From Candidatus Blackburnbacteria bacterium RIFCSPHIGHO2_12_FULL_44_25 (GTDB taxonomy: Bacteria; Patescibacteriota; Microgenomatia; UBA8517; UBA10165), in the NCBI GenBank assembly GCA_001816455.1, contig MHCB01000038.1, forward strand, positions 7,965 through 71,964: 64,000 bases of DNA. Reading direction: 5' to 3'. This document shows, in pieces, positions 3,425-61,940 of this stretch (positions within the stretch are counted from its first letter, which is position 1; the number at the start of each line of letters is the position of its first letter). A program made the translations under genes and the position numbers. Below the pieces are notes generated by a model. It saw only the letters and a list, made by a program, of their open reading frames with translations, was not told the DNA's origin and ran no database searches.

Positions 3425-3750
3425 AAAGATGTAAGACATAAGACATTGGATGTTGGACATTAGACCGGTGAACCATTGTAACAAAATCGCCCGTATGTAC
3501 TCTCCAAGTTAATGAAGAACACATACGGGCTCTTCACTTCGTTCAGAGTAAACTGAGCGGTCAAGAACGGTACCACCGTATTTTTTGCTTGTAGGACTCC
3601 GTAGCCTGGGGCTCGACATCCTTTTGTTCTATTACGGGAACTTCCCGGTCCGCCCTACTTCGTAGTTCAGGCGGACGGCCAGGTACCAGTCGGTACCCGG
3701 TCCCGCACCGTCTGGTGCTGGGACTCCGTGGCGAATGCACCACATCAATG
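3425..3750 (-). promoter_or_regulatory. putative T-box riboswitch leader (Phe) upstream of pheST
   Basis: The minus strand reads AAAATACGGTGGTACCGTTC, which matches the T-box consensus AATTAGGGTGGTACCGCG at about 14 of 18 positions. Its UGGU bulge would pair with the A73-CCA of tRNA-Phe. A terminator hairpin (GCCCGTATGT…ACATACGGGC plus a U-run) sits between it and the pheS start. GC-rich structured sequence upstream is compatible with Stem I. Confidence 0.45.
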
Positions 3751-4268: not shown

Positions 4269-5450
4269 CTACTGTTTTGTGTGCAGCTCGGGGTTGAGCT
4301 GGACGGCGGCCTTGGTCGGACCGGCTTCCAACTCGCCCGTGAGGCTGTTGCGCCAATAACGCAGGTTGGGTCTGCCCGAGAGCTCCCAGGTGCGCACGAC
4401 GGTGCCTTCTGGCTGCAGGCGAATGGGGCCGTTGCTCAGAACGTACACGCCTTGCTGTACCTGACATCCGGGGCCGAGGCTAATGCCTGTGCCTGAATTG
4501 GCGCCCAGCAAGCAACCGTCACCGATGGTGATCACCTCTTTGCCGCCTCCAGAGAGTGTGCCCATGATAGACGCTCCGCCACCGATGTCCGAGCCGGCGC
4601 CAACGAGCACTCCCTGGCTGATCCGGCCTTCGACCATAGAGGGGCCGAGCGTGCCGGCGTTGAAATTGCAGAATCCCTCCTGCATGACAGTAGTGCCTTT
4701 GGCGAGATGGGCTCCCAAGCGCACACGGCTGGCGTCGGCAACACGTACGCCACTTGGTACAACGTAGTCGGTCATGTGCGGGAACTTGTCTACGCCAAAT
4801 ACGCGCAGGTGTACGCCCCGTGCTAGGCACTGCAGCTTGGCCATCTCGAAGGTTTCCGGCGCCAGTGGCCCTTCGCTGGTCCAGAGGACGTTTGGCAGTA
4901 GCCCGATGAGGCCGCTGAGGTTGATGCTTCGAGGCTGGACCCTTCGGTGCGATAGGAGGTGCAGGCGCAGGTAGCAATCGTGCACGTCAACCGGTGGATC
5001 GTCCAGGCTGCCGATGAATGTGACCACAACTGTTTGGGGTACTAAGGTCTTTGTGTGGTCAGGGCTCGTGAGCAGTTGGTGTAGAGCCTTGAGTATTTCG
5101 ATGTTTGGGTGGTATTTGCCGTCGCCTTCAAGTGGTCCAAAGATGCGCAGGACCATTTCTATGTTTGTTCGGGACAAGCTGCGGCTTGCTGAACCAGTGG
5201 AATGGCCTGTCACGTCGGCTAGCACTGCGGCAGTGTCGAAGTGCTCCATCAGGTTCACATGTGGATACCAGGTGTCGAGTACTTGGGCGCCGCCAAACAT
5301 CACTTCGGGCTCACCCGCGTTTACTAGTGTGTGGCTGGCGAGGCCGATGGCGAACGCTGTTGGAGGTTCGTAGACAGGCCGCGCTCTTACCGCTTCGATG
5401 TAGTTGTCGTAGTCTTCTTGTGTCCAGACCGACTGGTGGCTTCTTGTCAC
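4269..5450 (-). CDS. hexapeptide-repeat acyltransferase, actinobacterial DapD-like
   Basis: 393-aa ORF in a roughly 62% GC block. The C-terminal left-handed beta-helix repeats (GVLVGAGSDIGGGASIMGTLSGGGKEVITIGDGCLLGANSGTGISLG) are typical of mycobacterial-type 2,3,4,5-tetrahydropyridine-2,6-dicarboxylate N-succinyltransferase (DapD). Confidence 0.5.
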   Translation of the reverse strand: MTRSHQSVWTQEDYDNYIEAVRARPVYEPPTAFAIGLASHTLVNAGEPEVMFGGAQVLDTWYPHVNLMEHFDTAAVLADVTGHSTGSASRSLSRTNIEMVLRIFGPLEGDGKYHPNIEILKALHQLLTSPDHTKTLVPQTVVVTFIGSLDDPPVDVHDCYLRLHLLSHRRVQPRSINLSGLIGLLPNVLWTSEGPLAPETFEMAKLQCLARGVHLRVFGVDKFPHMTDYVVPSGVRVADASRVRLGAHLAKGTTVMQEGFCNFNAGTLGPSMVEGRISQGVLVGAGSDIGGGASIMGTLSGGGKEVITIGDGCLLGANSGTGISLGPGCQVQQGVYVLSNGPIRLQPEGTVVRTWELSGRPNLRYWRNSLTGELEAGPTKAAVQLNPELHTKQ

Positions 5451-5584
5451 TACCGTGCCTTTCTGTTGCTAAGGTGCTGCCCAAGAGAATTTCTCCTGGG
5501 TTCCGTTTCGACGGAATGAGGAATTATACCGTGCGAGGTTGGTGTAATCAAACATTATGGGTTTTTGGTATACTTAGTTTATAT

Positions 5585-6592
5585 ATGGCAAGATATTTTT
5601 CTACATTTATTCCGGGTTTGGGGGAGGTTGTTCAAGCGGAACTTAAAAGGAAGCTTCCAGATTTAAAAGTTGAGCTTTTGGTTGATGGTCTAGTTGTGTA
5701 CGAGACTGAAGCTTCTATTGAGGAAGTTTCCGCTTTAAGGTTTTTGAATAATAGTTTTTATGTTTTTCATTTTTTTAAAAAAGTTGAACCCAACTCTTTG
5801 GTTGGGATGATGAAGTTTGTTTATAACAGTGATTTTTTGAAGAAGATGTCTGTTCCGCGAGTCAAGAGCCGTGATCGCAGTTTTAGGGTGATTACTTCTT
5901 ATCAAAACAAATTGAGGGCTGTGGAACTTAATGTTTTGAAGAATGCTGAAGAAAAGATTGCGAAGGCTACGCGGCTGACCTTGGATCGGTCAAAACCGGA
6001 TCTGGAATTTTGGTTCTTGGAGCGGTCCGAGGGTATTGGATTTTTTGCTTTGAGGCTAACGTACGATAGACGATCTGAAAAAGACTTAGAACGCGGAGAG
6101 TTGAGGCCGGAGCTTTGCAATTTGTTATGTATTTTGTCTGAACCTCAAGAGGATGATGTTTTTCTTGACCCATTTTCTGGGACTGGAGCAATACTGAGGG
6201 AAAGGATGCAAATAGCGTATAGCAAATTGTTTGTAGGAGAAAAAGATAAGGATAAGTTTGAATGTTTAAAGACAAGGTTTCATAAAAATGATGTAGAAGT
6301 TTTTCAGGCGGATGCGACAAAATTGCCTCTCGGAGACGATTCGGTTAATAAGATTGTTACTGATCCGCCGTGGGGGCAGGCTGAGGAGGTGGAGGCGGAA
6401 ACACTTTACAAAGGAATGTTTGCTGAATTCTCTAGAGTTTTGCGGAGGGGTGGGGTGTTAGTTCTTCTTACGTCCCAGAAAGATATTGTTGAGGAGTTCT
6501 TAAAGGAGAGTTCGGATTTTAGCCTGGATGCGCGGTATGATGTTTTAGTTTCGGGAAGAAAAGCGGGGGTTTTTAAAATTAGGCGGATTTAG
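5585..6592 (+). CDS. THUMP-domain RNA (guanine-N2/adenine-N6 class) methyltransferase
   Basis: DPPWG methyltransferase motif and an N-terminal THUMP-like region. Start set at the ATG at 5585. The ORF-track start at 5105 is read-through of the GC-rich dapD antisense. Confidence 0.7.
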
Positions 6593-7134: not shown

Positions 7135-7742
7135 GCTGTCTCTTTCGCTACTTTTTCTACCCCTACCTTTTCTGTTTTATTTGACTTGACTGGCGTTAGG
7201 ACCATTATTAGCTGTCTACCTAAAAATTTTGGTTCTTGGTCTACTGCTGATCTGTCCTTTGTTGCCTGTACTACTTTTTCGCTCAAGCGATAGCCAAATT
7301 CCCTGTGGGACATTTGGGCTCCCCGGAACTTGATGACTACTCGGACTTTACTGCCTTCTCCTAGGAATTCCTGGATTTTTTGGAGGCGAGTTTGGTAGTC
7401 GTTTTCCCCGATAAAAGGGGTCAACCAAACTTCTTTTTGCTCGGTCCCCTTTTTCTCCTTTTTCCTTGCCTCTTTTTCCTTTTTTTCTTGCTGGTACCTA
7501 AACTTGGCAAAGTCAATAATTTTTGCAACCGGAGGTTTGGCGTTAGAAGCTATTTCGACTATATCTAGCTCTAGCTCTTTTGCTTTGGCAAGTGCCTCTT
7601 CTCTCGAAAAAAGTCCAAGCTGTTTTCCCTCTGCGTCTACGACGCGGAGTTCTCTTGCTTGGATATTTTGATTAATCCTCCAATATGGTCTTTTGAAATT
7701 ATTCCTTACCGCCAAGTGACTGACCAATTCTACCACAGGCAT
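7131..7742 (-). CDS. infC: translation initiation factor IF-3
   Basis: IF3 N- and C-domain sequence (…INQNIQARELRVVDAEGKQLG…VVIKFRGAQMSHREFG…). The true start may be a non-ATG codon downstream of the ORF-track start. Confidence 0.85.
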   Translation of the reverse strand: MPVVELVSHLAVRNNFKRPYWRINQNIQARELRVVDAEGKQLGLFSREEALAKAKELELDIVEIASNAKPPVAKIIDFAKFRYQQEKKEKEARKKEKKGTEQKEVWLTPFIGENDYQTRLQKIQEFLGEGSKVRVVIKFRGAQMSHREFGYRLSEKVVQATKDRSAVDQEPKFLGRQLIMVLTPVKSNKTEKVGVEKVAKETA

Positions 7743-7776
7743 GCACTTTTCTGCAATCTGGGGTCTGTAAAAGCGG

Positions 7777-9648
7777 TTAAAGGTTTGTTCTTTCTTGAAT
7801 CACTTTTTTGATTTGGCTTTCGAATTCTTTCAGTTTTATAGCTCCTTCGTTTTTGCCGTTTCTTAAGCGTACCGCAACGGAGTTGGAACTTTCTTCCCTG
7901 TCGCCTACTACCAGCATGTATGGAATTTTTCTTACTTGGGCGTCTCTTATCTTTGCTTGAAGAGTTTCCGCTCTGTTGTCCGCCTCTGCCCTTATTCCTT
8001 CGTTTTCAAGAAGTACTTGAACAGAATTTGCGTAAGCTGTATTCCTTTCGGTTATTGGGAGAACTATTGCTTGGACAGGCGAAAGCCAAATGGGGAATGC
8101 TCCGCCATAGTGTTCAATTAAGAACGCAAAGAAACGTTCAAACGAACCAATTAGGGCTCTGTGGATAACATATGGTTTTTCCTCCTTACCTTCTTCGTTG
8201 GTATAAGAAAGACCGAATCTTTTTGGTAGGTTAAAATCGAATTGAATTGTAGAGATGGTATCTTCTTTGCCAAAAACATTAACGGCTTGTATATCTATTT
8301 TTGGTCCATAAAAAGCTGCTTCTCCTGGGGCTATTTTGTATTCGAGTTTATTATCGTCCAACACTTTTTTCAGGGCGTTTTCTGCTTTTTCCCATTCATC
8401 TCTTTCTGCTATTTTATACTTTGCATCTTTTGGGTCAGACAAAGACAATCTCATCCAGTATTGGGTAAAGCCCAAGTCTTTGTAGAATTGTTTTAGAATC
8501 TTTATAACTTCGGTTAGCTGTTCGTCGAGTTGGTCTGGTCGGCAAAATATATGGGCGTCATTTTGTGTGAAGCCGCGAACGCGTTGTAGCCCATGCAGTT
8601 CTCCGGATTTTTCGTACCGATAAACAAGGCCGAATTCGCCGAGCTTAAAGGGCAGATCTCTGTAACTTCTGGTTTTGGATTTATAAACCATCATAGCTCC
8701 GGGACAACTCATTGGTTTTAGGTAAAGTTTTTCGTTATCTACTTCTATTGGGGGGTACATAGAATCGTTGTAAAAGCCTAGGTGACCAGAAGTTTCAAAT
8801 AGTTCGGCTTTTGATATTACAGGGGTGATTGTGTGTTGGTACCCGTGCTGCCTTTCGACCTTGAGCATATAATCCTCAAGCTCGCGGCGAATGATGAATC
8901 CGTTTGGTAGCCAGACGGGAAGGCCTTGACCGATCTCTGGAAAGATTGCAAATAATTCAAGTTCTTGACCTAATTTTCTGTGGTTTCTTTTTTCGGCTTC
9001 TTCCTGCTGCCAGAGATATTTATCTAACTCTTCTTGTGTTGGATAGGCTGTGCCGTAAATTCGAGTTAACATCTTGTTTTTTTCATCGCCATGCCAATAG
9101 GCGCCGGCGATTGATAACAGTTTAAAAGGACCGATTTTTCCGGTTCTCTCTACGTGTGGCCCTTTGCAGACATCAACAAAAGTGTTAGGCGGGCTATCGC
9201 CTTGTATTGTGTAGATGCTTACCTTCTCGCCCCTTTTGTTTGCTTCCTCAATCCATTCAAGTTTGTAAGGATTGTTGGAAAAAGCTTTTCGTGCCTCTTC
9301 AACCGACATTTCGGTATGGGTGATTGGAAAATCGGCATTAATAATGTCCTGCATTTTCTTCTCGATTTTTGGGAGGTCTTTTTCTTGGATTTTTCGCTTG
9401 CTGTCAAAGTCAAAATAAGAACCCGAAGACGGAACCTTGCCACTTGCGTGGTAAGAACCCGAAGACGGAGTCTTGCGGAACCTTGTTTCGCCTTCTAAAT
9501 CGAAATCGAAATAGAAACCCTCTTCTGTTGCGGGGCCCATCGCAGCTAGGAGTCCCGGATAGAGTTTGAGCATGGCCATGGTTAAGACATGCTCCGCGCT
9601 GTGCCTCATTGTTTCCATTGGGTTTGGTTGATCCTGTTTTTTTGACAT
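7777..9648 (-). CDS. thrS: threonine--tRNA ligase (N-terminally short, no TGS domain)
   Basis: Class II ThrS catalytic and anticodon-binding domains (…HRALIGSFERFFAFLIEHYGGAFPIWLSPVQ…) and the editing-domain HSAEHVL motif near the N-terminus. Start chosen at MSKKQ (9648). Confidence 0.85.
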   Translation of the reverse strand: MSKKQDQPNPMETMRHSAEHVLTMAMLKLYPGLLAAMGPATEEGFYFDFDLEGETRFRKTPSSGSYHASGKVPSSGSYFDFDSKRKIQEKDLPKIEKKMQDIINADFPITHTEMSVEEARKAFSNNPYKLEWIEEANKRGEKVSIYTIQGDSPPNTFVDVCKGPHVERTGKIGPFKLLSIAGAYWHGDEKNKMLTRIYGTAYPTQEELDKYLWQQEEAEKRNHRKLGQELELFAIFPEIGQGLPVWLPNGFIIRRELEDYMLKVERQHGYQHTITPVISKAELFETSGHLGFYNDSMYPPIEVDNEKLYLKPMSCPGAMMVYKSKTRSYRDLPFKLGEFGLVYRYEKSGELHGLQRVRGFTQNDAHIFCRPDQLDEQLTEVIKILKQFYKDLGFTQYWMRLSLSDPKDAKYKIAERDEWEKAENALKKVLDDNKLEYKIAPGEAAFYGPKIDIQAVNVFGKEDTISTIQFDFNLPKRFGLSYTNEEGKEEKPYVIHRALIGSFERFFAFLIEHYGGAFPIWLSPVQAIVLPITERNTAYANSVQVLLENEGIRAEADNRAETLQAKIRDAQVRKIPYMLVVGDREESSNSVAVRLRNGKNEGAIKLKEFESQIKKVIQERTNL

Positions 9649-9911: not shown

Positions 9912-10169
9912 CTACTGGTTTGGGGGAATTGTCAAATTGGGAGCTTTTTTTGGGCCGACTGTGGGGCGGTTTTCTTCTATGGATTTGGTTATCTCGGAGA
10001 GGAAGTTTCCGACCACTGGAACCCAGTTTACTTTTGAACCCAAGAAGCCCATCGTGGCAAAAAGCAAGGACAACCCGACTGTTACCCCTAAACCCCAGGC
10101 GACTCCGCCTATGAAGTTGCCCAAAAACATTTTTCCTATACTTCTGTGGACTTGGTCTTTGGGTTGCAT
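9912..10169 (-). CDS. small membrane protein, DUF5665-like
   Basis: 85-aa ORF with …MFLGNFIGGVAWGLGVTVGLSLLFATMGFL…, a pattern typical of a CPR small membrane protein family. Confidence 0.5.
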   Translation of the reverse strand: MQPKDQVHRSIGKMFLGNFIGGVAWGLGVTVGLSLLFATMGFLGSKVNWVPVVGNFLSEITKSIEENRPTVGPKKAPNLTIPPNQ

Positions 10170-10259
10170 GAATTCATATTAGAATGCTAAATGCTAAATT
10201 ACAAATGACAAATTTTTACTACTCAACTATTGTGTGCTACATTTATTTAGCATTGGTCA

Positions 10260-10838
10260 TTGGGCATTTTTATGAAGTGGATTAGTCGGCTCTATATTGT
10301 TTTTGTCGGGATAATTTTGTCGATTACGACAGGCTACGGCTTGGCGGCTTTTTACCCCGACCCCAAAGCCTTTGTTAGTCTTGAGACCAAACCGTATCCT
10401 GTCATACCCCGAAGTTGTACAGAAACTCCCGCGCAGCAAAGCTCTCCTCCCTGTCAGAAGTATTTTGAGGATGAAAGGAAATACCAGGAAGAGCAAAATG
10501 CAAAACAGGAAGAACTTCAGAAAAAGCAGGAAGAGCAAAGGAACCGGAGCGCAGCGTATACTCGGACTGCTGTGTTTTTTGGAATAACTGCAGGGGCGTT
10601 TTATGCGATTTTAGGACTTTTACTGCTTCGTTCTTCAAAACTTGTATCCAATGGGTTGATGCTTGCGGGGGTTTTGACGGCCGTATTGACACGATTTTTA
10701 GTTAGTCTTGCGAGCTTGGGAGCGGGGGTTACCGGGAGCGTTGGTGCGGACAGTATGGCGTATGTTCAGTTTGGAGTTTTGCTTCTTCTCTCTGTGGCGG
10801 TGATTTTTGCCGGGAAGACTGTTTTGAGGGATGAATGA
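10260..10838 (+). CDS. hypothetical membrane protein with a central charged/coiled segment
   Basis: 192-aa ORF with an N-terminal TM, a QEEQNAKQEELQKKQEEQ stretch and C-terminal TMs. Confidence 0.5.
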   Translation: MGIFMKWISRLYIVFVGIILSITTGYGLAAFYPDPKAFVSLETKPYPVIPRSCTETPAQQSSPPCQKYFEDERKYQEEQNAKQEELQKKQEEQRNRSAAYTRTAVFFGITAGAFYAILGLLLLRSSKLVSNGLMLAGVLTAVLTRFLVSLASLGAGVTGSVGADSMAYVQFGVLLLLSVAVIFAGKTVLRDE

Positions 10839-10839
10839 T

Positions 10840-10915
10840 TGGTGGACGGTAGAGGACTCGAACCTCTGACTTCATTCACGTCAAGAATGCGCTCTACCAA
10901 CTGAGCTAACCGTCC
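10840..10915 (-). tRNA. tRNA-Val(GAC)
   Basis: Manual cloverleaf GGACGGT-TA-GCTCAGTTGGTAGAGC-G-CATTC-TTGACGT-GAATG-AAGTC-AGAGGTTCGAGTCCTCT-ACCGTCC-A-CCA. CCA is encoded. Confidence 0.85.
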
Positions 10916-11053
10916 TGGTTGTTTGTCAAAATGTGCTTCGTTTAGGTTGACAACTGAGTTGCGCCTGTCGGCGCCCGCTGTGCGGTAACCGTCCCGGTGA
11001 GCCATATTATACCAGATGTTTTGTCTTTGAGTGTTCTTATGTGTGTGCCTCCA

Positions 11054-11095
11054 ACACTTCGGGAGTGTAATGGCTTTACACATCGGGAGATGTGT
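11054..11095. repeat. REP-A hairpin pair (ACACTTCGGGAGTGT and ACACATCGGGAGATGTGT) upstream of RAYT-1
   Basis: Two adjacent short palindromes with GGGA-type loops, 13 bp upstream of the RAYT-1 start. Confidence 0.6.
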
Positions 11096-11107
11096 TAGTA
11101 TTAGAAT

Positions 11108-11773
11108 ATGCCAACTCGTATAATTCCTTTGGGAACTGGTGAGTTTTACCACGTCTTTAATCGTGGAATTGCAAAGCAGCCTGTGTTTTTGGATAAACGA
11201 GATTACAGACAAATGATATTGGGTCTCTCATACTATCGTTTTGCGGTGCCCCCAATAAGACTATCGTTTTTTAAGACACTCCCGTTGGATCAGAAATCAT
11301 ATTTATGGAAGGAGCTCCAAACTAGAAATGAGAAGCTAGTTGAAATTGTAGCTTTTGCTTTGATGCCTAATCACTTTCACTTACTACTAAGGCAGGAAGC
11401 TGAAAATGGCATATCTACGTTTATGAGGCGGTTGGCTAATAGCTACACGCGCTTTTTTAATACCAAGGATGGCCGCAAAGGGCCAATTTTTCAAGGGGTT
11501 TTTAAGGCTGTGCATGTCTCTACAACAGAGCAACTTATGCATGTGTCGCGATACATCCATGTAAACCCGGTAGTTTCTTATGTGATAAAAGAGAGTGAGA
11601 TGTTTAGTTACCCTTGGACTTCTTTACCAGAGTTTTTGGGTGATCCAAGTATGGCAATGCCAGAACCGGTTTTGTCGTTATTTTCTTCTAAAGACGACTA
11701 TAAAGATTTCGTTTTGGATCAAGTTGACTATGGTAAGCGGTTAGAGGAGATAAAGCACCTTGTTTTTGAGTAA
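11108..11773 (+). CDS. IS200/IS605-family HUH Y1 transposase / REP-associated tyrosine transposase (RAYT-1)
   Basis: HuH motif LMPNHFHLL and the conserved …VSRYIHVNPV… region. Flanked on both sides by CACTYCGGGAGTG hairpins. Confidence 0.75.
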   Translation: MPTRIIPLGTGEFYHVFNRGIAKQPVFLDKRDYRQMILGLSYYRFAVPPIRLSFFKTLPLDQKSYLWKELQTRNEKLVEIVAFALMPNHFHLLLRQEAENGISTFMRRLANSYTRFFNTKDGRKGPIFQGVFKAVHVSTTEQLMHVSRYIHVNPVVSYVIKESEMFSYPWTSLPEFLGDPSMAMPEPVLSLFSSKDDYKDFVLDQVDYGKRLEEIKHLVFE

Positions 11774-11796
11774 GATCCGGATGTGTGAAGTTGTTA

Positions 11797-11809
11797 CACT
11801 CCGGGAGTG
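11797..11809. repeat. REP-A hairpin (CACTCCGGGAGTG) downstream of RAYT-1
   Basis: Same 13-nt palindrome family as at 11054-11068, 24 bp after the RAYT-1 stop. Confidence 0.55.
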
Positions 11810-11850
11810 AACTTGTACCTACACCTTGGGGGAGAAAGGTTGTTTTGCGT

Positions 11851-21892: not shown

Positions 21893-21967
21893 TGGTGGAT
21901 CGCCAGGGACTCGAACCCTGAACAGCCGCCTTAAGAGGGCGGTGCTCTACCATTGAGCTAGCGATCC
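21893..21967 (-). tRNA. tRNA-Lys(CTT)
   Basis: GGATCGC-TA-GCTCAATGGTAGAGC-A-CCGCC-CTCTTAA-GGCGG-CTGTT-CAGGGTTCGAGTCCCTG-GCGATCC-A-CCA. It is 1 nt from tRNA-Arg. Confidence 0.85.
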
Positions 21968-22008
21968 AATTGAGGCTTTTGGCCTATCCGGCTACAATTA
22001 TACCAAAT

Positions 22009-23157
22009 ATGGATAATACCGAAAAACAAATCGAAGCTATTCAAGAGGAAATGCGCAAGACCCCGTACCATAAAGGTACTCAAAAGTGGTTTGGGAAAAT
22101 GCGGGCAAAGATAGCAAGGTTGAGAGACCAGATTCTCTGGCGTCCGTTTTTGGCAAGGCAAGGTGGGGGTGGTTTTTCCGTTCGTAAGTTTGGGGATAGT
22201 TCTGTTGTTTTAGTTGGTTTGCCTTCTGTTGGTAAATCCACTCTTCTTAATGCGCTGACTAATGCCAAATCCCCTACTGCAGAATATGCTTTTACTACGG
22301 TTTCTGTGATTCCTGGGATGATGAATTTCAATGGAGCACAAATTCAGATTTTGGACGTTCCCGGACTTATCGAAGGGGCTTCCAGAGGAGCAGGGCGTGG
22401 TCGGGAGGTTTTGTCGGTTGTACGAGGAGCTGACCTTCTTTTGATCATTGGTGAGCGTGGGAAAGAAGAGAATCAGTTTATGCAAATTGACCGTGAACTT
22501 TTAACAAACGGTGTTCGAATAAATCAGGAACCGCCAGAGGTTGCTGTTAAAAAGCTGCTTCGCGGGGGTATAAAGATAAATTCTACTTTTAAGCAAGAAA
22601 TTGACCGCGAGACGATTCGGGAGGTTGCAAAGGAGTTTGGGATTATAAATGCGGAGATTACTATTCGCGAGAAATTGACCCTTGATCGATTGATTGATGT
22701 GTTTGCCACGAGTCGTGTTTATGTGCCGGCTTTGTATGTTATTAATAAGGTGGATAAGCTGAATTTTGGTGGTACCCCTGAGGTGCGGGTACAATTTCAC
22801 TTCGGGAGTGAAGCAGGTACGACACCTCGGGAGGTTGTAAGGATCAGTGCGGAACGAGGGTTGGGGTTGGAGAGTTTGAGAGAGAAAATGTGGGAGGTGT
22901 TGGGGTTGGTAAGGGTTTATCTTCGTGATCCGAGAGGCCACCCCCGCAGTCATAGCGTGTTCGGTGGACGCTTGGACTTAGAGCAGGTGATAGTTCATAC
23001 GGAGGAAACGTTGGGTGGGGTTTTGGGAAAGTTGGGCCCCGATGCTTCTATTGGAAAAACTGAGGCGCGAATTTGGGGACCTGGGGCAAGATTCCCCGGG
23101 CAAATTGTTTCTTTGGGGACAAAGGTACAAGACAGGATGGAGGTAACTTTCGTTTAG
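22009..23157 (+). CDS. DRG/Obg-HflX-like GTPase with a C-terminal TGS domain
   Basis: G1 GLPSVGKSTLLNALT, G3 DVPGLIEGA, a TGS-like C-terminus (…LVRVYLRDPRG…). Start at MDNTEKQ. Confidence 0.75.
   Translation: MDNTEKQIEAIQEEMRKTPYHKGTQKWFGKMRAKIARLRDQILWRPFLARQGGGGFSVRKFGDSSVVLVGLPSVGKSTLLNALTNAKSPTAEYAFTTVSVIPGMMNFNGAQIQILDVPGLIEGASRGAGRGREVLSVVRGADLLLIIGERGKEENQFMQIDRELLTNGVRINQEPPEVAVKKLLRGGIKINSTFKQEIDRETIREVAKEFGIINAEITIREKLTLDRLIDVFATSRVYVPALYVINKVDKLNFGGTPEVRVQFHFGSEAGTTPREVVRISAERGLGLESLREKMWEVLGLVRVYLRDPRGHPRSHSVFGGRLDLEQVIVHTEETLGGVLGKLGPDASIGKTEARIWGPGARFPGQIVSLGTKVQDRMEVTFV
22771..22835. repeat. composite hairpin mini-element (GTACCC…GGGTAC, CACTTCGGGAGTG, ACCTCGGGAGGT) inside the DRG GTPase ORF, in frame
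   Basis: Three consecutive palindromes, including the REP-A 13-mer, encode …GGTPEVRVQFHFGSEAGTTPREVV… without breaking the reading frame. Confidence 0.5.
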
Positions 23158-23254: not shown

Positions 23255-23941
23255 TTAGGTTGTGGGGGCGGCGGATAGGAGTGCCATTGAGTACAGGCAC
23301 TCATATCCCACTTCCAAGTAGGGATAGCAGCCCTCGACAAGGTCGTGGTCGCCTAGGAGTTTGGTGACCCTTATTTTGCAGACTCTGGTATCGACTTCGT
23401 CGACCACTCTGCATACAGCGTGGATTGTTCCACACATGACCTTCCTGTAGAGAACAACGGTTTGGCCGATGGTGGGGAGCGGGCGTAGATATGTTAAGGA
23501 AACGCTCCTGGATTGACCTGTTAGTACAGCATACTTCCCACTTCCGGCGTTTTCCAGAAAGATTATCTCGGCGCTGTCCTCGGCAAGACTGGTTATTCGT
23601 GCTCTGGCTTCTATGCCGGCGTAGGGGTTGTGGTAGGTGGCTTGGCCCCATGCGGCGAGCTGTTCGCGCTGTTTTTGTCTCGTACGACGCTTTTCTTCAA
23701 CGGCGTTGACGATGTCAGGGTGTTCGGCTCTGAGCTGGTCCCAGACGGCTTTCAGGCCTGCCAGCGTTTTTCGGTGCCAACGGCGTCTTTTCCATCCTTC
23801 AAACCGCGAGTCGACGAGCTCTTGTATGTCAGCCTCGGTTGTGTCAGGAAATTTGCCGAACCTGCCGCGGGTTACGGCGAGGAGACGTTCACGGCGACGG
23901 CTACGCACGACGGCTTCACGGTCATCGGCTGTGTATTCCAT
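23255..23941 (-). CDS. hypothetical protein (GC-rich island)
   Basis: About 228 aa, high GC, start at MEYTADDRE. Confidence 0.45.
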   Translation of the reverse strand: MEYTADDREAVVRSRRRERLLAVTRGRFGKFPDTTEADIQELVDSRFEGWKRRRWHRKTLAGLKAVWDQLRAEHPDIVNAVEEKRRTRQKQREQLAAWGQATYHNPYAGIEARARITSLAEDSAEIIFLENAGSGKYAVLTGQSRSVSLTYLRPLPTIGQTVVLYRKVMCGTIHAVCRVVDEVDTRVCKIRVTKLLGDHDLVEGCYPYLEVGYECLYSMALLSAAPTT

Positions 23942-23972
23942 TTTTCTCCTCCACATGAGAATGAGCAGCTTG

Positions 23973-23993
23973 TGACAGGGTGGAACCCTGTCA
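23973..23993. repeat. REP-B palindrome TGACAGGGTGGAACCCTGTCA
   Basis: 9-bp arms with a 3-nt loop. One of six copies in the window. Confidence 0.7.
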
Positions 23994-24454: not shown

Positions 24455-24546
24455 TTGAAGGGAGTCAGCACAGTTAGGTTAATTATTCAGGAGCAATGTT
24501 GGAATGTCAAATGACCTAGTGGTAGTGGGTGGTATACTTATTAAGT

Positions 24547-25059
24547 ATGGCGGTAATACTTGACGGTGAAGAAAAAATAACTGCTAGGGCGCATGCAGAT
24601 TTGGAGGGAGATACGATTTCCGGAACTGCGGATTTTGAGGAACTTCAAATTGGCACCCAGACTTTGGTTCGTATAACTGTTGAGCTTTCTGGTGATCCGG
24701 AAAAACTTGTCCCGGGACTTCATGCTGTTCATATTCATGAGAAGGCAAGTTGTGAAGGGGGTTTTAAGTGCGCTGGGGGACATTTTGACCCGGGGCCTGC
24801 GGGGAATACGGACCCGGACGCGAACCATCCTTACCATGCTGGTGATTTGCCGAATATAGAAATCGGAGAGGATGGTAAGGGAAAATTACAGTGTGTTACG
24901 ACTCGTGTAACCCTTTCTCCGGGGCCTCTTTCCATATTGGAAGGTGAGGGCACTTCTCTCATGATTCATGGCAATCCGGACCCTTATCGTGGCGGACCTA
25001 CGGGTTCGGGGATTTCTGGCGGGCCAAGGGTTGCTTGTGGGGTGGTTAAAGTGGTGTGA
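24547..25059 (+). CDS. sodC: Cu/Zn superoxide dismutase
   Basis: …HAVHIHEKASCEGGFKCAGGHFDPG…HAGDLPN…RVACGVV… with metal-ligand His residues and a disulfide Cys. No obvious signal peptide. The TGA stop lies inside the REP-B copy at 25057. Confidence 0.8.
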   Translation: MAVILDGEEKITARAHADLEGDTISGTADFEELQIGTQTLVRITVELSGDPEKLVPGLHAVHIHEKASCEGGFKCAGGHFDPGPAGNTDPDANHPYHAGDLPNIEIGEDGKGKLQCVTTRVTLSPGPLSILEGEGTSLMIHGNPDPYRGGPTGSGISGGPRVACGVVKVV

Positions 25060-25077
25060 CAGGGTTCCACCCTGTCA
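25057..25077. repeat. REP-B palindrome TGACAGGGTTCCACCCTGTCA
   Basis: Identical arms to the other copies; provides the sodC stop codon. Confidence 0.7.
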
Positions 25078-25164: not shown

Positions 25165-26280
25165 CTAGCTGGTTGAGGCGGCAGCCTCGCGGGCGCGGCG
25201 CTGTTGAGTGCGGACAGTGTGGCAGCGACCAAGGCCCACCTTGTAGAGGGGGCAAGGATCTCGCTGTGTTGAGCTGCACTCGCCTTCTTGGCACCACCGT
25301 TGGCGCTGAGCGTCAAAGACCCGTGGGTTCAGTGACACCATGAGGATCTCAAGGATGTCATGGAGTCCAAGCTTGGTTGGCGGCATGTTCCGAGCGGTAA
25401 GGCTCCCGTTGAGTAGCATCCCGCCATTCGGTTGGTAATACCACTCTTCGGAATGCTCGAGAACTCCCTCCCGACTCAGATCTTTCCATGGCAGATCTCC
25501 GAAAAGCTCCTTGGCTTCCATCTCGCGGATTCGGACCATGTGGACCGTATCGCGCATGGAGCTGCCTGAGGATTGGTTCGGAAGAATTTGTATGTGGCCG
25601 GATGTCTGCTGTTGAACGACGATGTCAGCCTTGTCGCCATACTTAGATCTGGCGTAGCCTAGGACCTGCTTGTTGTTTGAGCGAATCAGGACCACAGTGT
25701 AGACGCGGTTGCTGGGCCCAGGAATTTGTACGACCAACTTGTTCCGGTCGTAGTGCTCCTTGAGTTGGAAAAACCCTTCCTGGTTTTTGATGTATCCGCG
25801 GATGATGGCATCGACCCAGGAACGGACGGTTTCCGGATGATCAGGGTAAGCCAGGTGCATTTGCTTCACAAGTGAAGCAAGATCAAAGGTTCCTGCCTCG
25901 ACCTTTTCGCCGTCCAACATAGTCTCTTCGCCGAGGTCTCGTGCCTTTGTGAAGGCTAAGAGTCTTCCGAGCTCGGGCCTATCTGCGATTCCGAGGTCTT
26001 TGGCAATTAGCGTAGCGGCGCATTCGTTGAGCTTCCTTGCTTGGTCGCCGTTTGCGTGCTCGTCGAACTTGCCTCCCCAGATTCCAACGGCCAATACACC
26101 GCGTGCTTCCCACTCTTCGGCTGAAGTGCCATCGGGCGAGTTGCGGCCTGCGTCGTAGTACACGACTTTGGCGTTTTCAATGCCGGGATACTTCTGGCGT
26201 CCATAGCGCTGCAGTAAATAGATGCCAACATACTCGTCCAGATGTGGGTTGCGGTGCGTGGCGATTTGGTTAATCCGCAT
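25165..26280 (-). CDS. hypothetical protein, possibly UPF0160/MYG1-like metal-dependent hydrolase
   Basis: The N-terminal IATHRNPHLDEY resembles the MYG1 [IG]THxGxFHxDE motif; 371 aa; GC-rich. Confidence 0.35.
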   Translation of the reverse strand: MRINQIATHRNPHLDEYVGIYLLQRYGRQKYPGIENAKVVYYDAGRNSPDGTSAEEWEARGVLAVGIWGGKFDEHANGDQARKLNECAATLIAKDLGIADRPELGRLLAFTKARDLGEETMLDGEKVEAGTFDLASLVKQMHLAYPDHPETVRSWVDAIIRGYIKNQEGFFQLKEHYDRNKLVVQIPGPSNRVYTVVLIRSNNKQVLGYARSKYGDKADIVVQQQTSGHIQILPNQSSGSSMRDTVHMVRIREMEAKELFGDLPWKDLSREGVLEHSEEWYYQPNGGMLLNGSLTARNMPPTKLGLHDILEILMVSLNPRVFDAQRQRWCQEGECSSTQRDPCPLYKVGLGRCHTVRTQQRRAREAAASTS

Positions 26281-26344
26281 GGTGTTCCTCCTTTAAGGAA
26301 CCAGCTAGTAGGTATTGAGATTGCTCATCAATACCAGATTTAAA

Positions 26345-26478
26345 GTGCTGATTCAGCCGAAAGTCTTTCAGCTGACTCTTGGAACTTGCGAACAATTCGT
26401 AAGCTTCAAGAGTGTGTGCCAGCCGAGTGCCCTAGTTTCGCGTTGTTGTAACGCAATTTCAGGCACCCGGACTGGGTG
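26345..26478. repeat. about 135-bp upstream element, copy 1 (direct repeat of 27179-27318)
   Basis: About 90% identical to copy 2 by eye. It lies immediately 5' of the 25165-26280 gene on the minus strand. It contains near-palindromes AAGCTTACGAATTGTTCGCAAGTT and GAAAGTCTTTC. Confidence 0.7.
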
Positions 26479-26482
26479 AGAA

Positions 26483-27139
26483 TCAGTAGATTGGGCGACG
26501 CTTGCCGTAGAGATCTTGGTGGGTTTCTAGATCCTCGATCCATTCGCGAGTGCGCACGCGTCGTTCTCTGTCCCACTGCCGCTGGGTTGTTGGCGTGACT
26601 ACACACTCGATTATGCCGTTGACGGCCAGGAGGGTGAAGGTGCCACGCGGCGTCTTGAGCGTAAAGGTGTCGAGGTGTACCTCCTCTTCGTTGTGTCTAC
26701 CCATGGACACGATTTCGCGTGTCCCCATGAGTAGTTCGACGGGTGTATTGAAATCTGCCAGATAAGGAGAAAGTCCGTCGTAGTTCGCTCGGTGGAACTC
26801 CACGTCCCGTTCGACGACTTCGGTCATTCCCCCAAGCCCTACGTATGCAAGTGTGTATGCTTCTTGTATTGCGTGGGTGATGTCCCCGCGGATGATTTGG
26901 AGGAGTTCACGTTTTGACCGCGCCATATGTATTGGCGTTGACGATCTTTCCGCGAACTCTGCCGACCAGGGGATGCCCTGTGTGTCGTGCCAGATTTCTG
27001 TCTCGTCATCCCGGCGGATTTGAACCCACCGTTCGATGTTAAGGTCACTCGCTGAGTAAAACCTTACGCAGGAGCAGGTACGACAGTGGGTAGGCTTGTG
27101 ATTGTCGCGAGAGCAGTCACACATTGCGCAGTAGTTCAT
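26483..27139 (-). CDS. hypothetical protein with an N-terminal Cys-rich segment
   Basis: 218 aa, MNYCAMCDCSRDNHKPTHCRTCSC…; GC-rich. Confidence 0.45.
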   Translation of the reverse strand: MNYCAMCDCSRDNHKPTHCRTCSCVRFYSASDLNIERWVQIRRDDETEIWHDTQGIPWSAEFAERSSTPIHMARSKRELLQIIRGDITHAIQEAYTLAYVGLGGMTEVVERDVEFHRANYDGLSPYLADFNTPVELLMGTREIVSMGRHNEEEVHLDTFTLKTPRGTFTLLAVNGIIECVVTPTTQRQWDRERRVRTREWIEDLETHQDLYGKRRPIY

Positions 27140-27178
27140 GACAAACCTCCTTTAGGGTCTAATTGATTCTGTTTTTAT

Positions 27179-27318
27179 GGTGCTGATTCAGCCGAAAGTC
27201 TTTCAGCTGACTCTTGGAACTTGCGAACAATTCGTAAGCTTCAAGAGTGTGTGCCAGCCGGGTGCTCTAATTTCGCGTTGTTATACGCAATTTGTATTAG
27301 GCACCCGGGCTGTTTGTG
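27179..27318. repeat. about 135-bp upstream element, copy 2
   Basis: Direct repeat of 26345-26478. It lies immediately 5' of the 26483-27139 gene. Confidence 0.7.
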
Positions 27319-27339
27319 GTTGTGCGGCCTATGTTTGTA

Positions 27340-27966
27340 CTAGTCTAGTATTGTTATTGTCCGCACCTCCATCTTGTTGTAGATCTGAGTGATCAGGTTG
27401 GTAACATCACCGGCGATTCTCAACGTGTCACTCCCACTTGTCCTCTTGGTGTGGAGGAGCAGATGGTCTGGCCTGACGCTTACTAGCGTAACATCGTTGA
27501 GCTTTGCGCACCCGGAGGCCAGACGGTCTGCGCGCAGGTCTTCGTTGCGGCCGGAGTGCAGTCTCAGTGGCTCACCGGTAACAACGTCTACGACCTGGAG
27601 AACTGCTTTCAACTCTGATGGACTGCAACCAAAAACACTGTTGACCTTGAAATAGACGTCGACTTGAGGGACGCTTACCTCCACCGCTTCTTGTGTGTCC
27701 TCTTGTTCTGTCGGGAACAAGTTTCTTATGTGCAAGAGTCCTATGCCGATCAACATAAGGTTCATGTTGCCGAGTACGTACGTGAGAGGTATGGTAGCCA
27801 ACCCGAAAATTCCCACGAGGCTAGCTACCGTACAGAAAAAGGCTCCGATCACGAACAAGCCCAGGCCGCAAATCACCAGTAGTAATTTCACCAATGCCAG
27901 TGCCATCTGTTTCTCCTTCTGTTGCTCTTTGGCAACGGTCTGGGCTCTTTTTTTTGAAAAACCCAC
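27340..27966 (-). CDS. hypothetical membrane protein
   Basis: 208 aa, two N-terminal TMs then a soluble domain. Confidence 0.45.
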   Translation of the reverse strand: MGFSKKRAQTVAKEQQKEKQMALALVKLLLVICGLGLFVIGAFFCTVASLVGIFGLATIPLTYVLGNMNLMLIGIGLLHIRNLFPTEQEDTQEAVEVSVPQVDVYFKVNSVFGCSPSELKAVLQVVDVVTGEPLRLHSGRNEDLRADRLASGCAKLNDVTLVSVRPDHLLLHTKRTSGSDTLRIAGDVTNLITQIYNKMEVRTITILD

Positions 27967-28101
27967 ATTGTTGCCTTTGAGCGTTAATTAAGGTGCAATC
28001 TATTTAAAAACACCAATTGCTTGCTGTTTTTAAGCGATTGCCGGGTACCGATCTTGTGCACGATGTGTGCGACGAAGACCGGCACCCGGTGGAAGGAAGA
28101 G

Positions 28102-28587
28102 TTAGATCTGCGACGGCCCGAAGGGACCGTTGATGTTCCAGTGGTCACTGGAATTGATGAGCTTTCCTTCATCCGACATAGGGTCGGAGGCCTCAAAGAT
28201 GCGAGCGATGTCGCCGCCTTCTACCGAATAGATGGCAGCAACGCCAAACGATCCGTCTGGACGGGCAGTGGTGTGGTTCACCGTGAACCAGAACGATGTC
28301 TTCATGGCCCCAAGGCCACACTTGAGGGGGATCTCCGACTCAGGCAGTACGACCAGGCCGTCATTGGTACCACCATTGTGTTGGTGGCAGAATCGTGCGA
28401 GGTCGTACAAGTCTCTCAACTGCACTGGCGTGTGGATGGCCAAATGGTCCTCGTCGCCTAGTACTTTGCTGAGAACGGCGTCCTCGGACGCTGTCGGTGC
28501 CTTTGCTCCTGCCCAGATGACTGGTGTGCTAGGAAAAAAGGTCCTCAGTGGTCCGGCGTCCTTGCTGTTTGCGGCAACTAGTTGCAT
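28102..28587 (-). CDS. hypothetical protein (GC-rich; strand assignment uncertain)
   Basis: 161-aa ORF, co-directional with neighbouring genes. Overlapping + strand ORFs of similar length exist. Confidence 0.3.
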   Translation of the reverse strand: MQLVAANSKDAGPLRTFFPSTPVIWAGAKAPTASEDAVLSKVLGDEDHLAIHTPVQLRDLYDLARFCHQHNGGTNDGLVVLPESEIPLKCGLGAMKTSFWFTVNHTTARPDGSFGVAAIYSVEGGDIARIFEASDPMSDEGKLINSSDHWNINGPFGPSQI

Positions 28588-28860
28588 TTTCTTCCTTCAT
28601 ATTTTCTGTGTGCTTATTGCAATCACAGGCGGCTTGTTAAGCAGCACACTGGCTACCTCAACTTGCACGAAAGAGATATACCAGAGTGCTACCAACAAGC
28701 TTTATTCAAGGTGCTAAGCTAATCCTGCTCGCTGCTGCTCCCAGGATCTTCGGCAACGTTTTGCCTCGATGTGTAAACGAGGCAAAAAGCGGCCTCGAGA
28801 TTATTTAAGTATTGTACCTCAAAGAAGCTCAAAAGTCAACTACTACAGGTTACTGCATGG

Positions 28861-28935
28861 AAAAGCCCCCGGTCTCGCGTCAGTCGTCTGGTTTCGTTGT
28901 TGAGACGAATCGTTGACGGCGAGGTCCGGGGGCTT
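28861..28935 (-). terminator. long hairpin terminator after the 28960-29535 gene
   Basis: Minus strand AAGCCCCCGG…CCGGGGGCTTTT with an internal substructure. Confidence 0.45.
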
Positions 28936-28959
28936 GTTGGTACCAGTCGGTACCTGGTT

Positions 28960-29535
28960 TTAGGATGTGTTTGGACGGAGGAGCGCAGTTAGCTTCTCTT
29001 GGTGCCCTTCGTCCTTTGGTATGGTGAGCAGCTCCTCTGCGGTGGTCCCGACTGATTCCGGCTCGAGCTTCCCTGCTTCCAAATGGAAGAGAAAGTGGCG
29101 CCAGGCACCGGTTTTCCCTGTCTTGATCAGTTCGAGATCGTGGGCGGCCGCCTCGGCGTTGTACTCCCTCTCGAGCATATTGAGCTCTTCTGGTGAGGTA
29201 CCGATTGCTCGGAGGGCGTCGGAGTCTGTAGGCAGTTTGGAGAGCATGTAGTAGAACAAGCACCCTCCTTCCCGCAGGTCTCTGAGCACTTCTTGAGCTG
29301 AGGGTTCTGGATCAGTGTTGTGTGATCCGTACATCACCCTCAATACCATGGCTTCCTGATCCTCTGGGAGACCAAGGGCTGCTGCGACCTCGGCTGCGCG
29401 GCCTTCCATGTCGAACATCATTCCCCGCATCCTTTGTTGCCAACCTACGTTCATTTTCAGCTCCTCTATTGTGTTTGAGAGCTTCTCGACTCGCCTAAAG
29501 GTTTGGTCGAGGTATAAAAGGTGCCAGAAAAGCAC
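28960..29535 (-). CDS. hypothetical protein
   Basis: 191-aa GC-rich ORF; likely start at MNVGWQQRMRG. Confidence 0.4.
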   Translation of the reverse strand: MLFWHLLYLDQTFRRVEKLSNTIEELKMNVGWQQRMRGMMFDMEGRAAEVAAALGLPEDQEAMVLRVMYGSHNTDPEPSAQEVLRDLREGGCLFYYMLSKLPTDSDALRAIGTSPEELNMLEREYNAEAAAHDLELIKTGKTGAWRHFLFHLEAGKLEPESVGTTAEELLTIPKDEGHQEKLTALLRPNTS

Positions 29536-29641
29536 AATTGCTCGTGCTTTTACTACGCCTATTGTAACACGAAACAGCTACGATGTCAAAGATTATGGGA
29601 TAGCATGATACTGAACTTCCAGTCTTCAAGTAGACAGGTTG

Positions 29642-29690
29642 TTGACATAGCTTCTCTATCTGACTACAATCTGACTAGAAACTGACTGAG
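29642..29690 (+). promoter_or_regulatory. sigma70-like promoter with three 11-bp-phased CTGACT direct repeats
   Basis: TTGACA (29642-47), 17-bp spacer, TACAAT (29665-70). CTGACT recurs at 29660, 29671 and 29682, ending at the ATG of the wHTH regulator. Confidence 0.5.
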
Positions 29691-31067
29691 ATGTCAACTA
29701 AAACCACTTCGGCTCCGGAAGTTGCCCCTCCTCTTACAATTGCCACGCTCAAAAAATATGCACAGGAAGTTTTTACGCCCATACGGCGGGGTGAGTGCGT
29801 AAGTACAATCTGGCCCTTGATGGCTGGTAGACGGATTAGGAATAAATTCATTATCTCCTACCCCGAACTTTTCTCGGAAGAAATTGGGAATCCTTCAAAA
29901 TATCTGCTTGTGTATGTTGAACCTTTAGAACTTACCGAAGAATCAAACAGCGGATTTATAAGACTTGTTGCAAAGTCTATTCTTGAGGCTTTTTCTCAAA
30001 AAAACACGAAGGCTTTTAAAATTGGCGCAGAACTTTCATTTGACGAATCATTAGGGTATTCGACTCTTCTTGATCGTTTAGCACAGCTTGTTTCCACGGT
30101 GTCTTCTTTTGGGTTGGCGACTGTTTTATTTTTGGGGGAGTTTGATGAGCTTTCGTTTGCAAATTCGATTCTGCACAATAATCTTAAATCTGTTTGGGCA
30201 AGAGCTGGCGGCAGTTTGCAGTTTATCTTTCTTTTGCAGGATGATGTTACCAGGCCTGAGTCTATTAAGAAATATGACGAGATAAATTCTTTGCTTTTGC
30301 GGAATGTAGTTTATGTTCCTTTGGTTGGGGACGAAGATATTGATTATCTTATTGATTATTTTGCGAAGCGTTTGGATAGGTCTTTTTCGAAAGATGAGCG
30401 GACTCTTCTCCGAGAAGTTTGCGGAGGGCATCCATATCTTCTTAGTTCTTGTACGAGGCTTATTGCTTTGATGAATGAATGTCAAGCTTCTCTTGAGGAG
30501 ATACGAGAGGTGTTGTTATCTCATTTTGAGCCGAGATCGGCTACTCAAAAGATATTTGATAATCTTTTACCTTCGGAGCAAGAATTTTTGAAGAACATGG
30601 TTTTGGGCAATGGTACTGCTGTTACCAATTTGCCCCCTTCGGTGTCCTCTCTTTTAAACTTGGGACTTATTAAAAAAGACGAGGAGGGCAAGTGGGTTCC
30701 GTTTGGAGAGATTTTTGCTGCTATCATTAAGGGCGATCAGGTTGAAGTTGCCCACTCGCCTGATTCGGGTTCTCACGGTTTGCACTACGATGAGTCTACT
30801 GGAGGAATTACTGTTGGCGGTGTAAATGTTGAAGAGAAATTTACGCGGCAGGAATATGATATTTTACGCTTCTTTTTGAAGGATTTGACCAAACTTCGGT
30901 CACGGGAGGAAATTGGTGAGGCCATGTGGGGCGAGCAGTCGTATGATAAGTATTCCGATTGGGCAATTGATCAGATAATGAGTAAACTTCGTAAGAAACT
31001 CAAAAGTTTAGGTATGGAGAAGGCCTTAGTTACTGTTCGAGGGCGGGGGTACAAGTTTTCTATTTAG
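29691..31067 (+). CDS. transcriptional regulator with a C-terminal OmpR/PhoB-type winged-helix domain and a large uncharacterised N-terminal domain
   Basis: C-terminus …TRQEYDILRFFLKDLTKLRSREEIGEAMWG…ALVTVRGRGYKFS (trans_reg_C). No receiver domain and no obvious P-loop. Confidence 0.65.
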   Translation: MSTKTTSAPEVAPPLTIATLKKYAQEVFTPIRRGECVSTIWPLMAGRRIRNKFIISYPELFSEEIGNPSKYLLVYVEPLELTEESNSGFIRLVAKSILEAFSQKNTKAFKIGAELSFDESLGYSTLLDRLAQLVSTVSSFGLATVLFLGEFDELSFANSILHNNLKSVWARAGGSLQFIFLLQDDVTRPESIKKYDEINSLLLRNVVYVPLVGDEDIDYLIDYFAKRLDRSFSKDERTLLREVCGGHPYLLSSCTRLIALMNECQASLEEIREVLLSHFEPRSATQKIFDNLLPSEQEFLKNMVLGNGTAVTNLPPSVSSLLNLGLIKKDEEGKWVPFGEIFAAIIKGDQVEVAHSPDSGSHGLHYDESTGGITVGGVNVEEKFTRQEYDILRFFLKDLTKLRSREEIGEAMWGEQSYDKYSDWAIDQIMSKLRKKLKSLGMEKALVTVRGRGYKFSI

Positions 31068-61919: not shown

Positions 61920-61940
61920 TGACAGGGTCTCACCCTGTCA
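61920..61940. repeat. REP-B palindrome TGACAGGGTCTCACCCTGTCA
   Basis: 12 bp upstream of the RAYT-2 start. Confidence 0.7.

Follow-up and report, generated by a model that had tools for sequence, protein, structure and literature searches.

Repetitive extragenic palindromic (REP) sequences of E. coli and Pseudomonas are short palindromic units that combine into inverted doublets (REPINs) forming a long hairpin, and copies flank the gene of a Y1/HUH transposase, the REP-associated tyrosine transposase (RAYT), at a syntenic position in relatives (PMC2817692, PMC5581495; Bertels & Rainey 2011). These features, along with the possibility that one genome harbours a further RAYT paralog associated with a separate REP family, are shared by a stretch of 64,000 nucleotides (the window) from contig MHCB01000038.1 of Candidatus Blackburnbacteria bacterium RIFCSPHIGHO2_12_FULL_44_25, a member of the Microgenomates in the Candidate Phyla Radiation (CPR, or Patescibacteria). 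A composite palindrome of 63 nucleotides lies there in frame within a gene for a DRG/Rbg-type GTPase, ~11 kb from a RAYT-like gene, and encodes 21 residues of a surface loop. This segment is very probably a REPIN-like REP doublet of the Candidatus Blackburnbacteria RAYT system that was inserted in frame and then inherited, with its hairpin kept in preference to its peptide.

The locus departs from the described REP/REPIN-RAYT systems in several respects. The copy in the GTPase gene is intragenic and in a translated frame, copy number is seemingly low, the tag next to the hairpin is GTAC or GTAT instead of GTAG or CGTC, a third, central hairpin is present, and the host is a CPR bacterium with a genome of ~1 Mb whose divergent RAYT scores below the NCBIfam cut-off. 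Classical REPs, by comparison, number more than 100 per genome and are extragenic by definition.

Intragenic REPs and the Rickettsia palindromic elements have already established that palindromes can occur in frame. In Di Nocera 2013 (PMC3733652), intragenic REP dimers of other phyla encode 20 to 30 amino acids, some open reading frames (ORFs) carry two inserts, the hosts are housekeeping genes, and the paper contends that the REP peptide is not functionally constrained; a GTAG or CGTC tetranucleotide adjoins the hairpin in the REP superfamilies described. Those insertions belong to other phyla and other REP superfamilies. Three traits of the window element have no match in the passages considered: deep conservation among orthologs with constraint at synonymous sites, insertion at a single loop in either orientation, and a shared frame in two genes that are unrelated. 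The palindromic elements of Rickettsia (Ogata 2000, 2002, cited through PMC10969869) are read in frame in many unrelated genes, with a conserved peptide where the fold tolerates it. The likeness is one of palindromic in-frame repeats at tolerated protein sites; the Rickettsia elements are ~100-150 bp long, occur only in Rickettsia and have no identified transposase, and the 63-nucleotide CPR element resembles them in behaviour. [quoted passage not shown] The window element differs in that it has no long terminal inverted repeats stemming from a complete IS, and the transposase gene is seemingly not multi-copy. Membership among the MITEs was rejected, as the element does not combine terminal inverted repeats with a target-site duplication.

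The composite is made of three copies of an 11- to 13-nucleotide unit, CACyTCGGrrG(TG), of which the 5' copy is inverted, the central one pairs with itself and the 3' one is direct (Table 1). The motif GNTACGACAC...TCGGG around the 3' outer arm is common to copies in other genomes. Positions 22774-22836 fold into a single three-tier hairpin of -30.6 kcal/mol (z = -2.96; 3 of 200 shuffles were equally stable), which includes a GTAC/GTAC helix between 22789-22792 and 22817-22820 and is among the ~20 most stable 70-nucleotide stretches of the 64 kb (mean -13.9, sd 5.1). At its centre is the 13-mer CACTTCGGGAGTG, of which there is a perfect copy at 11055 and a copy differing by a single base at 11797; with up to two mismatches there are 5 matches in the window against 1.34 expected, a count reached by 0 of 100 shuffles. 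When the first and third short palindromes were searched across the window, they were found only in the GTPase gene. Generic finders of direct and inverted repeats missed the element family, and covariance models recovered it. We refer to the model built from the five GTPase copies described below as R1 and to a broader model as R2; they score the window's GTPase copy at 88.7 and 78.1 bits, respectively. A search of the whole window with Rfam at gathering thresholds returned nine tRNAs and nothing else, placing the composite outside described RNA families. A reading of the hairpin as a terminator was rejected, since no T-run follows it.

An initial annotation had described the sequence at 22771-22835 as three consecutive palindromes in the GTPase ORF. 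The sequence is as quoted there, falls in the plus-strand ORF 21970-23157 and encodes ...GGTPEVRVQFHFGSEAGTTPREVV..., and the palindromes GTACCC-N9-GGGTAC, CACTTCGGGAGTG and ACCTCGGGAGGT are all present; structure prediction, one of the checks suggested there, gives one composite fold instead of three hairpins. The statement that the segment exceeds typical DRG proteins by about 9 residues is roughly right: it is 11 residues longer than in yeast Rbg1 and Rbg2, and the loop between the G4 and G5 motifs has 29 residues in the window compared with a mode of ~16 among ~70 Microgenomates orthologs. The supposedly atypical codon usage did not hold up. By mean log relative synonymous codon usage the 21 insert codons rank 77 of 362 windows, which is ordinary, and only total GC is raised (0.57 versus 0.47; 0.48 versus 0.43 at third positions). 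The insert peptide, TPEVRVQFHFGSEAGTTPREV, occupies residues 269-289 of the ORF.

The 221-residue product of the RAYT gene matches PF01797 (Y1_Tnp) at 36.8 bits (cut-off 23), and both the HUH motif (NHFHLL) and the tyrosine motif (RYIHVNP) are visible. Its best NCBIfam match is NF047646, REP_Tyr_transpos (REP-associated tyrosine transposase), at 52.9 bits, and a sequence search of the PDB returned no relative of it. There are 3932 homologs, mostly from Microgenomates, and Candidatus Blackburnbacteria RIFCSPHIGHO2_01_FULL has a database entry for a protein identical to it. Composite copies lie on both sides of the gene. The one in the 3' flank was first found by R1 and the one in the 5' flank by R2; R2 scores the former at 55.2 bits (E 5.4e-12), and its fold is weak (z -1.7).

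The arrangement recurs in other genomes. In H51-bin053, the genome that carries one of the element-bearing GTPase orthologs (L001/L005), a RAYT gene (L097, 3001-3666) whose product is 63% identical to that of the window is flanked on both sides by the composite (2914-2988 and 3657-3731, scoring 73.6 and 69.7 bits), and the context of threonyl-tRNA synthetase...RAYT-DUF5660-trigger factor is syntenic with the window. At L086, a composite (8394-8468) adjoins a RAYT gene (7723-8388), and L018 has the same RAYT-REP arrangement with a REP variant of its own. Composites flanking a RAYT gene are the arrangement that defines REP/REPIN-RAYT systems (PMC5581495).

Copies are also found apart from RAYT genes. 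A metagenome scan with an element-specific pattern returned eight loci, one of which is the known GTPase gene; an earlier pattern (GTGNNGGTACAANNNCACYYCNGGAGTG) had matched nothing. Five of the scan loci, four of them distinct (L090 and L093 are the same), have no ORF across the match and were treated as intergenic; intergenic copies in CPR genomes are those at L037, L088, L089, L090 and L092. The scan match at L086 is separate from the RAYT-flanking copy there. In another locus (L091), the element is in frame within a gene for orotidine 5'-monophosphate (OMP) decarboxylase, with the frame used also being that of the GTPase copy (SEVPIHFHLGGDSDTTPRE), and this protein has ~16 extra residues relative to its PDB homologs. 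For composites that flank RAYT genes, lie between genes or fall within another gene, covariance-model E-values range from 1e-12 to 1e-17. One antisense frame of the palindrome yields a similar peptide (SPDVSYLFHLRGGI...). This peptide is present in the same GTPase loop of two further proteins, P0016 (L094) and P0030 (L096), where the DNA matches the element when the latter is reverse-complemented, and these are therefore independent insertions in the opposite orientation. A 42-column profile of the doubled insert peptide found nothing in the protein database at E <= 10.

The same 21-codon segment is present at the same position in four distinct orthologous genes with 66-68% protein identity (L001, which equals L005, L002, L003 and L004). 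With the window, these make five GTPase copies that are identical in position, frame, orientation and length. In a codon alignment of the five whole genes, amino-acid identity is 0.68 and third-position identity 0.47. The element itself has an amino-acid identity of 0.65, ranking 224 of 372 windows, and a third-position identity of 0.73 (rank 5 of 372), the highest in the gene. Changes in the central stem are compensatory and at the same time non-synonymous, as in TTTCACT...AGTGAAG (FHFGSE) versus TTCCACC...GGTGGAA (FHLGGG), and the central hairpin shows compensatory T-A to C-G changes among orthologs. Across 13 copies of the element, 75.5% of cells pair, compared with 34-46% when partners are slid, and nine pairs change on both sides. 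The palindrome, which is kept at the DNA level in all orthologs that have the segment, is conserved as nucleic acid, with the peptide following from it.

If RAYT and IS200/IS605 enzymes are a guide, the Y1/HUH enzyme encoded at 11108-11773 would recognise the REP hairpin on single-stranded DNA and might occasionally copy or move REP doublets. One 63-nucleotide doublet would then have landed between the NKVD and SAE motifs of the GTPase in a stop-free frame and been read through as 21 extra residues. Presumably, the only insertions to survive are stop-free, frame-preserving ones in permissive loops of needed genes. The copy would still be constrained as a nucleic-acid element, perhaps because RAYT recognises it, because other copies serve to repair it or because the hairpin has a role in mRNA.

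In a possible, though less favoured, alternative, the REP insertion is now kept for a role in the GTPase gene or its mRNA, such as RAYT docking, ribosome pausing after the first half of the G domain and before the second, or an effect on RNase action or stability. This account overlaps the one we prefer and differs from it only in the reason for conservation; it draws on the high third-position identity and on the non-synonymous changes that keep the stem. Also in its favour, the sense strand folds more stably than the antisense strand (-26.4 kcal/mol), G-U pairs are used (pair 38/42 is UA in six copies and UG in six), and the arms contain Shine-Dalgarno-like (GAGGTG, GGGAGGT) and anti-Shine-Dalgarno-like (CACCTC) strings. 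However, a relative with 82% protein identity manages without the element, the presence elsewhere of unrelated hairpins or of the inverted element at the same site argues against a sequence-specific role in the gene, and the copy in the RAYT 3' flank has lost its fold.

The near relative just mentioned also bears on the history of the insertion. The proteins P0003, which has the element, and P0006, which does not, are 82% identical, and their genes share 90% DNA identity upstream of the site, where one has 25 codons and the other 14 unrelated codons. In a neighbour-joining tree, the clade with the element holds two members that are free of it. Five or more sequenced lineages have inherited the insert, and two or more in the clade are without it. 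Together with the copies that flank RAYT genes, lie between genes, interrupt the OMP decarboxylase gene or are inverted, the element-free relative bears out the proposal in the initial annotation that a REP/MITE-like sequence was inserted in frame and became a protein segment. REP-free genomes encoding the same peptide would undermine that proposal; in the single ortholog genome open to this check, members of the REP family surround the RAYT.

A different history, in which the five GTPase copies are younger than their genes, having been re-inserted at a preferred target or overwritten by gene conversion with no need of selection, seems unlikely. Several observations are in keeping with it: the family was inserted independently at least twice more in this loop, with its orientation reversed, another site of the GTPase gene has the same stem (TTCCACCT/AGGTGGAA), and distribution within the clade is patchy. 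The central hairpin is also genome-specific, reading CACTyCsGGAGTG in all three window copies and CCACCTCsGAGGTGG in all three copies of H51-bin053, and at L018 the 13-mer CACCTCGAAGGTG is common to the GTPase loop and the REP near RAYT. That RAYT flanks and GTPase have the same genome-specific variant hints at gene conversion or at co-evolution with RAYT. When the element is taken at full length, the signal for concerted evolution within genomes is unclear, the central variant being the only genome-specific part. Against re-insertion or overwriting stand the identical position, frame, orientation and length of the five copies, and the fact that over its full length the window GTPase copy is nearer to the orthologous copies than to those of its own genome.

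The GTPase gene also includes a second, degenerate hairpin insert in frame (Table 1). Relatives have a clean unit hairpin at this site, GCTTCCACCTGCGAGGTGGAAGC (HLRGG), and distant orthologs are 8-9 codons shorter there (comparison of the window, L002, L085, L006, L007 and L008 with L004, L011 and L012). In an AlphaFold2 model, both insert-encoded segments, residues 266-285 and 327-336, have a confidence (predicted local distance difference test, pLDDT) of less than 50. Other stretches of low confidence are the N-terminus and loops 59-70, 99-112 and 136-138, and the remaining fold is confident. The loop between G4 and G5 ranges from ~11 to at least 39 residues across ~70 orthologs, and nearly all of the longest loops (at least 25 residues) coincide with strong DNA hairpins, often of unrelated sequence. 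Given this great variation in length and the low model confidence, the GTPase would therefore seem to tolerate the insert.

Unrelated long hairpin inserts in the same loop of other Microgenomates are those at L028 (1074-1178), L045, L062, L034 and L014. The insert at L028 is bracketed by a direct repeat, CAACAGTTAACAGTC, that resembles a target-site duplication and may indicate a different class of element.

Variation of the G4-G5 loop in all DRG proteins, and the weakness of each short palindrome when taken singly (ACCTCGGGAGGT arises by chance in 16 of 100 shuffles), could suggest an ordinary lineage-specific loop under protein-level selection with palindromes by chance, but this is very improbable because the composite matches copies at RAYT flanks, between genes and in another gene, its 13-mer recurs exactly, and the peptide is less conserved than the third codon positions. 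Equally improbable is an intron- or intein-like intervening sequence removed before the mature protein, for which there is nothing direct beyond the introns and rRNA insertions for which CPR genomes are known (title of bioRxiv 10.1101/2025.07.03.662931), since the segment is only 63 nucleotides long, Rfam finds just tRNAs in the window, and being stop-free and a multiple of three in five orthologs and in OMP decarboxylase would be needless if it were spliced out.

Some points weigh against our reading of the segment as an inherited REPIN-like insertion of a RAYT system. Covariation is modest, with 26 of 500 shuffles reaching the covariation score of the 13 copies, and with the five GTPase sequences only two pairs change on both sides. 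The element-free proteins P0006 and P0010 have 14 unrelated codons at the site and not a clean empty site. Whole-element identity of the window GTPase copy is 0.68-0.76 to orthologous copies and 0.60-0.62 to the RAYT-flank copies of its own genome, and the argument from concerted evolution stands on two or three genomes. The NCBIfam score of the RAYT is below the curated cut-off of 80. With three full copies in 64 kb, two of them flanking the RAYT gene, the visible copy number is low. The conserved tag, read on the antisense strand, is GTAC or GTAT (GTCGTACC, TTGTACCC) and not GTAG or CGTC; a GTAG tag is present only in the 3' flank at L097. Mobilisation of the element by RAYT would follow by analogy, and translation of the 21 residues is predicted from a stop-free frame. 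By eye, no target-site duplication is present at the GTPase insert, whose flanks (...TTTGGTGGTA before the element and TTGTAAGG... after it) show no direct repeat; such duplications are not expected for Y1 transposases.

The host gene belongs to a group of GTPases, the DRG/Rbg subfamily, that is usually regarded as archaeal and eukaryotic. Its product matches MMR_HSR1 (3.6e-23) and the DRG-specific insertion domain MMR_HSR1_Xtn (7.1e-29) in Pfam, both above cut-offs, and yeast Rbg1 (PDB 4a9a) with an E-value of 3.4e-63; Rbg1 and Rbg2 are both at ~1e-63, and the Rbg2 alignment runs to residue 390. The C-terminal TGS domain of the subfamily (PF02824) is unreported for this protein and is on record for many of its homologs. 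There are 4400 matches at E <= 1e-10, CPR homologs number in the thousands, and the closest are all from Microgenomates, such as Blackburnbacteria and Woesebacteria. The 63-nucleotide insert lies between the G4 motif NKVD (residues 259-262) and the G5 motif SAE (293-295). The true start is probably the ATG at 22009 and not the listed TTG, because the latter adjoins a tRNA-Lys (21893-21967). In one Woesebacteria locus (L032), a RAYT homolog (11143-11811) is immediately downstream of the GTPase gene (10001-11077). The contig of the element-bearing ortholog P0003 (L002) has a reverse transcriptase gene (RVT_1) at 4983-5852, a few kb downstream.

Table 1. Features of the GTPase gene, its inserts and the RAYT locus (window coordinates)
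Feature	Position	Strand	Basis or details
DRG/Rbg-type Obg-family GTPase gene, 395 aa	21970..23157	+	Pfam and PDB matches
Composite REP/REPIN-like palindrome, 63 nt = 21 codons, in frame	22774..22836	+	fold, covariance models, 4 orthologs
5' outer arm CCCCTGAGGTG, inverted copy of repeat unit	22775..22785	+	pairs with 22823-22833
Central hairpin TTTCACTT-CGG-GAGTGAAG	22795..22813	+	holds unit CACTTCGGGAGTG (22798-22810)
3' outer arm CACCTCGGGAG, direct copy of unit	22823..22833	+	preceded by conserved spacer GGTACGA
Peptide stretch spanning insert region			...NFGGTPEVRVQFHFGSEAGTTPREVVR...
Second, degenerate in-frame hairpin insert GHPRSHSVFGGR (CCACC..18 nt..GGTGG), after VYLRDP	22936..22971	+	ortholog comparison
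RAYT-like Y1 (HUH) transposase gene, 221 aa, motifs NHFHLL and SRYIHVNPV	11108..11773	+	Pfam, NCBIfam, synteny
Composite copy, RAYT 5' flank, hairpins ACACTTCGGGAGTGT (11054-11068) and ACACATCGGGAGATGTGT (11078-11095)	11024..11096	-	R2 32.3 bits, E 1.6e-5
Full-length, structurally decayed composite copy, RAYT 3' flank, between convergent genes	11766..11839	-	R1 25.1 bits, E 4.4e-5

A second RAYT-like gene (Pfam Y1_Tnp), whose product is 41% identical to the first, lies in the region 61919-62653, where a frameshift divides it between ORFs 61953-62408 and 62342-62635. On either side of it, at 61919 and 62633, are members of another palindrome family, TGACAGGGT-nnn-ACCCTGTCA, which also occurs inside it at 62131 and 62421, both times in frame as (V/M)TGFHPV. 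This second REP family would therefore also be read through as protein, in its own transposase gene. Further copies are at 23973-23993, a short way outside the start of ORF 23255-23956, a minus-strand neighbour of the GTPase gene, and at 25057-25077, overlapping the stop codon of a Cu/Zn superoxide dismutase-like ORF (24529-25059). A palindrome resembling the 3' arm of the composite, CCTCGGGAGG, is found on the minus strand at 38280-38300 within ORF 38108-48769 (~3550 aa).

GC skew is positive in every 2-kb bin of the window (0.02-0.28; cumulative 4.5), and AT skew is mostly negative; a similarly strong strand asymmetry is described for a complete Microgenomates genome (PMC7143001). The region 26000-30000 has a raised GC content of ~0.51 and several very stable hairpins, including the strongest of the window (28864-28933, -43.7 kcal/mol), and a direct repeat of 112 nucleotides (26339-26450 and 27174-27285) is 95% identical between its copies.

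Relative to the systems outlined above, the phylum, the tag that is neither GTAG nor CGTC and the three-tier composite are new, as are a deeply conserved orthologous copy within a gene showing constraint at synonymous sites and the recurrence of insertion at one loop in both orientations. No paper dealing with both RAYTs or REPINs and the CPR or Patescibacteria came up in a literature search. More speculatively, and with some doubt on our part, the intragenic copy might be no decaying relic but belong to a REPIN population co-evolving with its RAYT, being maintained intact inside an essential gene over deep divergence, and in-frame hairpin insertion, in either orientation and repeatedly in permissive loops, might be a general source of loop diversity in Microgenomates and other CPR bacteria.

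Within 64 kb, the window unites a transposase gene, the REPs that flank it and a copy in a translated frame, and the comparison set adds orthologs, a near relative free of the element, an inverted insertion and a second host gene. The role of RAYTs in their hosts is still an open question. Evolution that preserves the hairpin at the expense of the peptide makes it possible to test, in very small genomes, whether REPINs are maintained by RAYT or decay. Events of the kind described here also offer a concrete way in which some unexplained insertions, of the sort that hamper alignment and annotation of CPR proteins, could arise.

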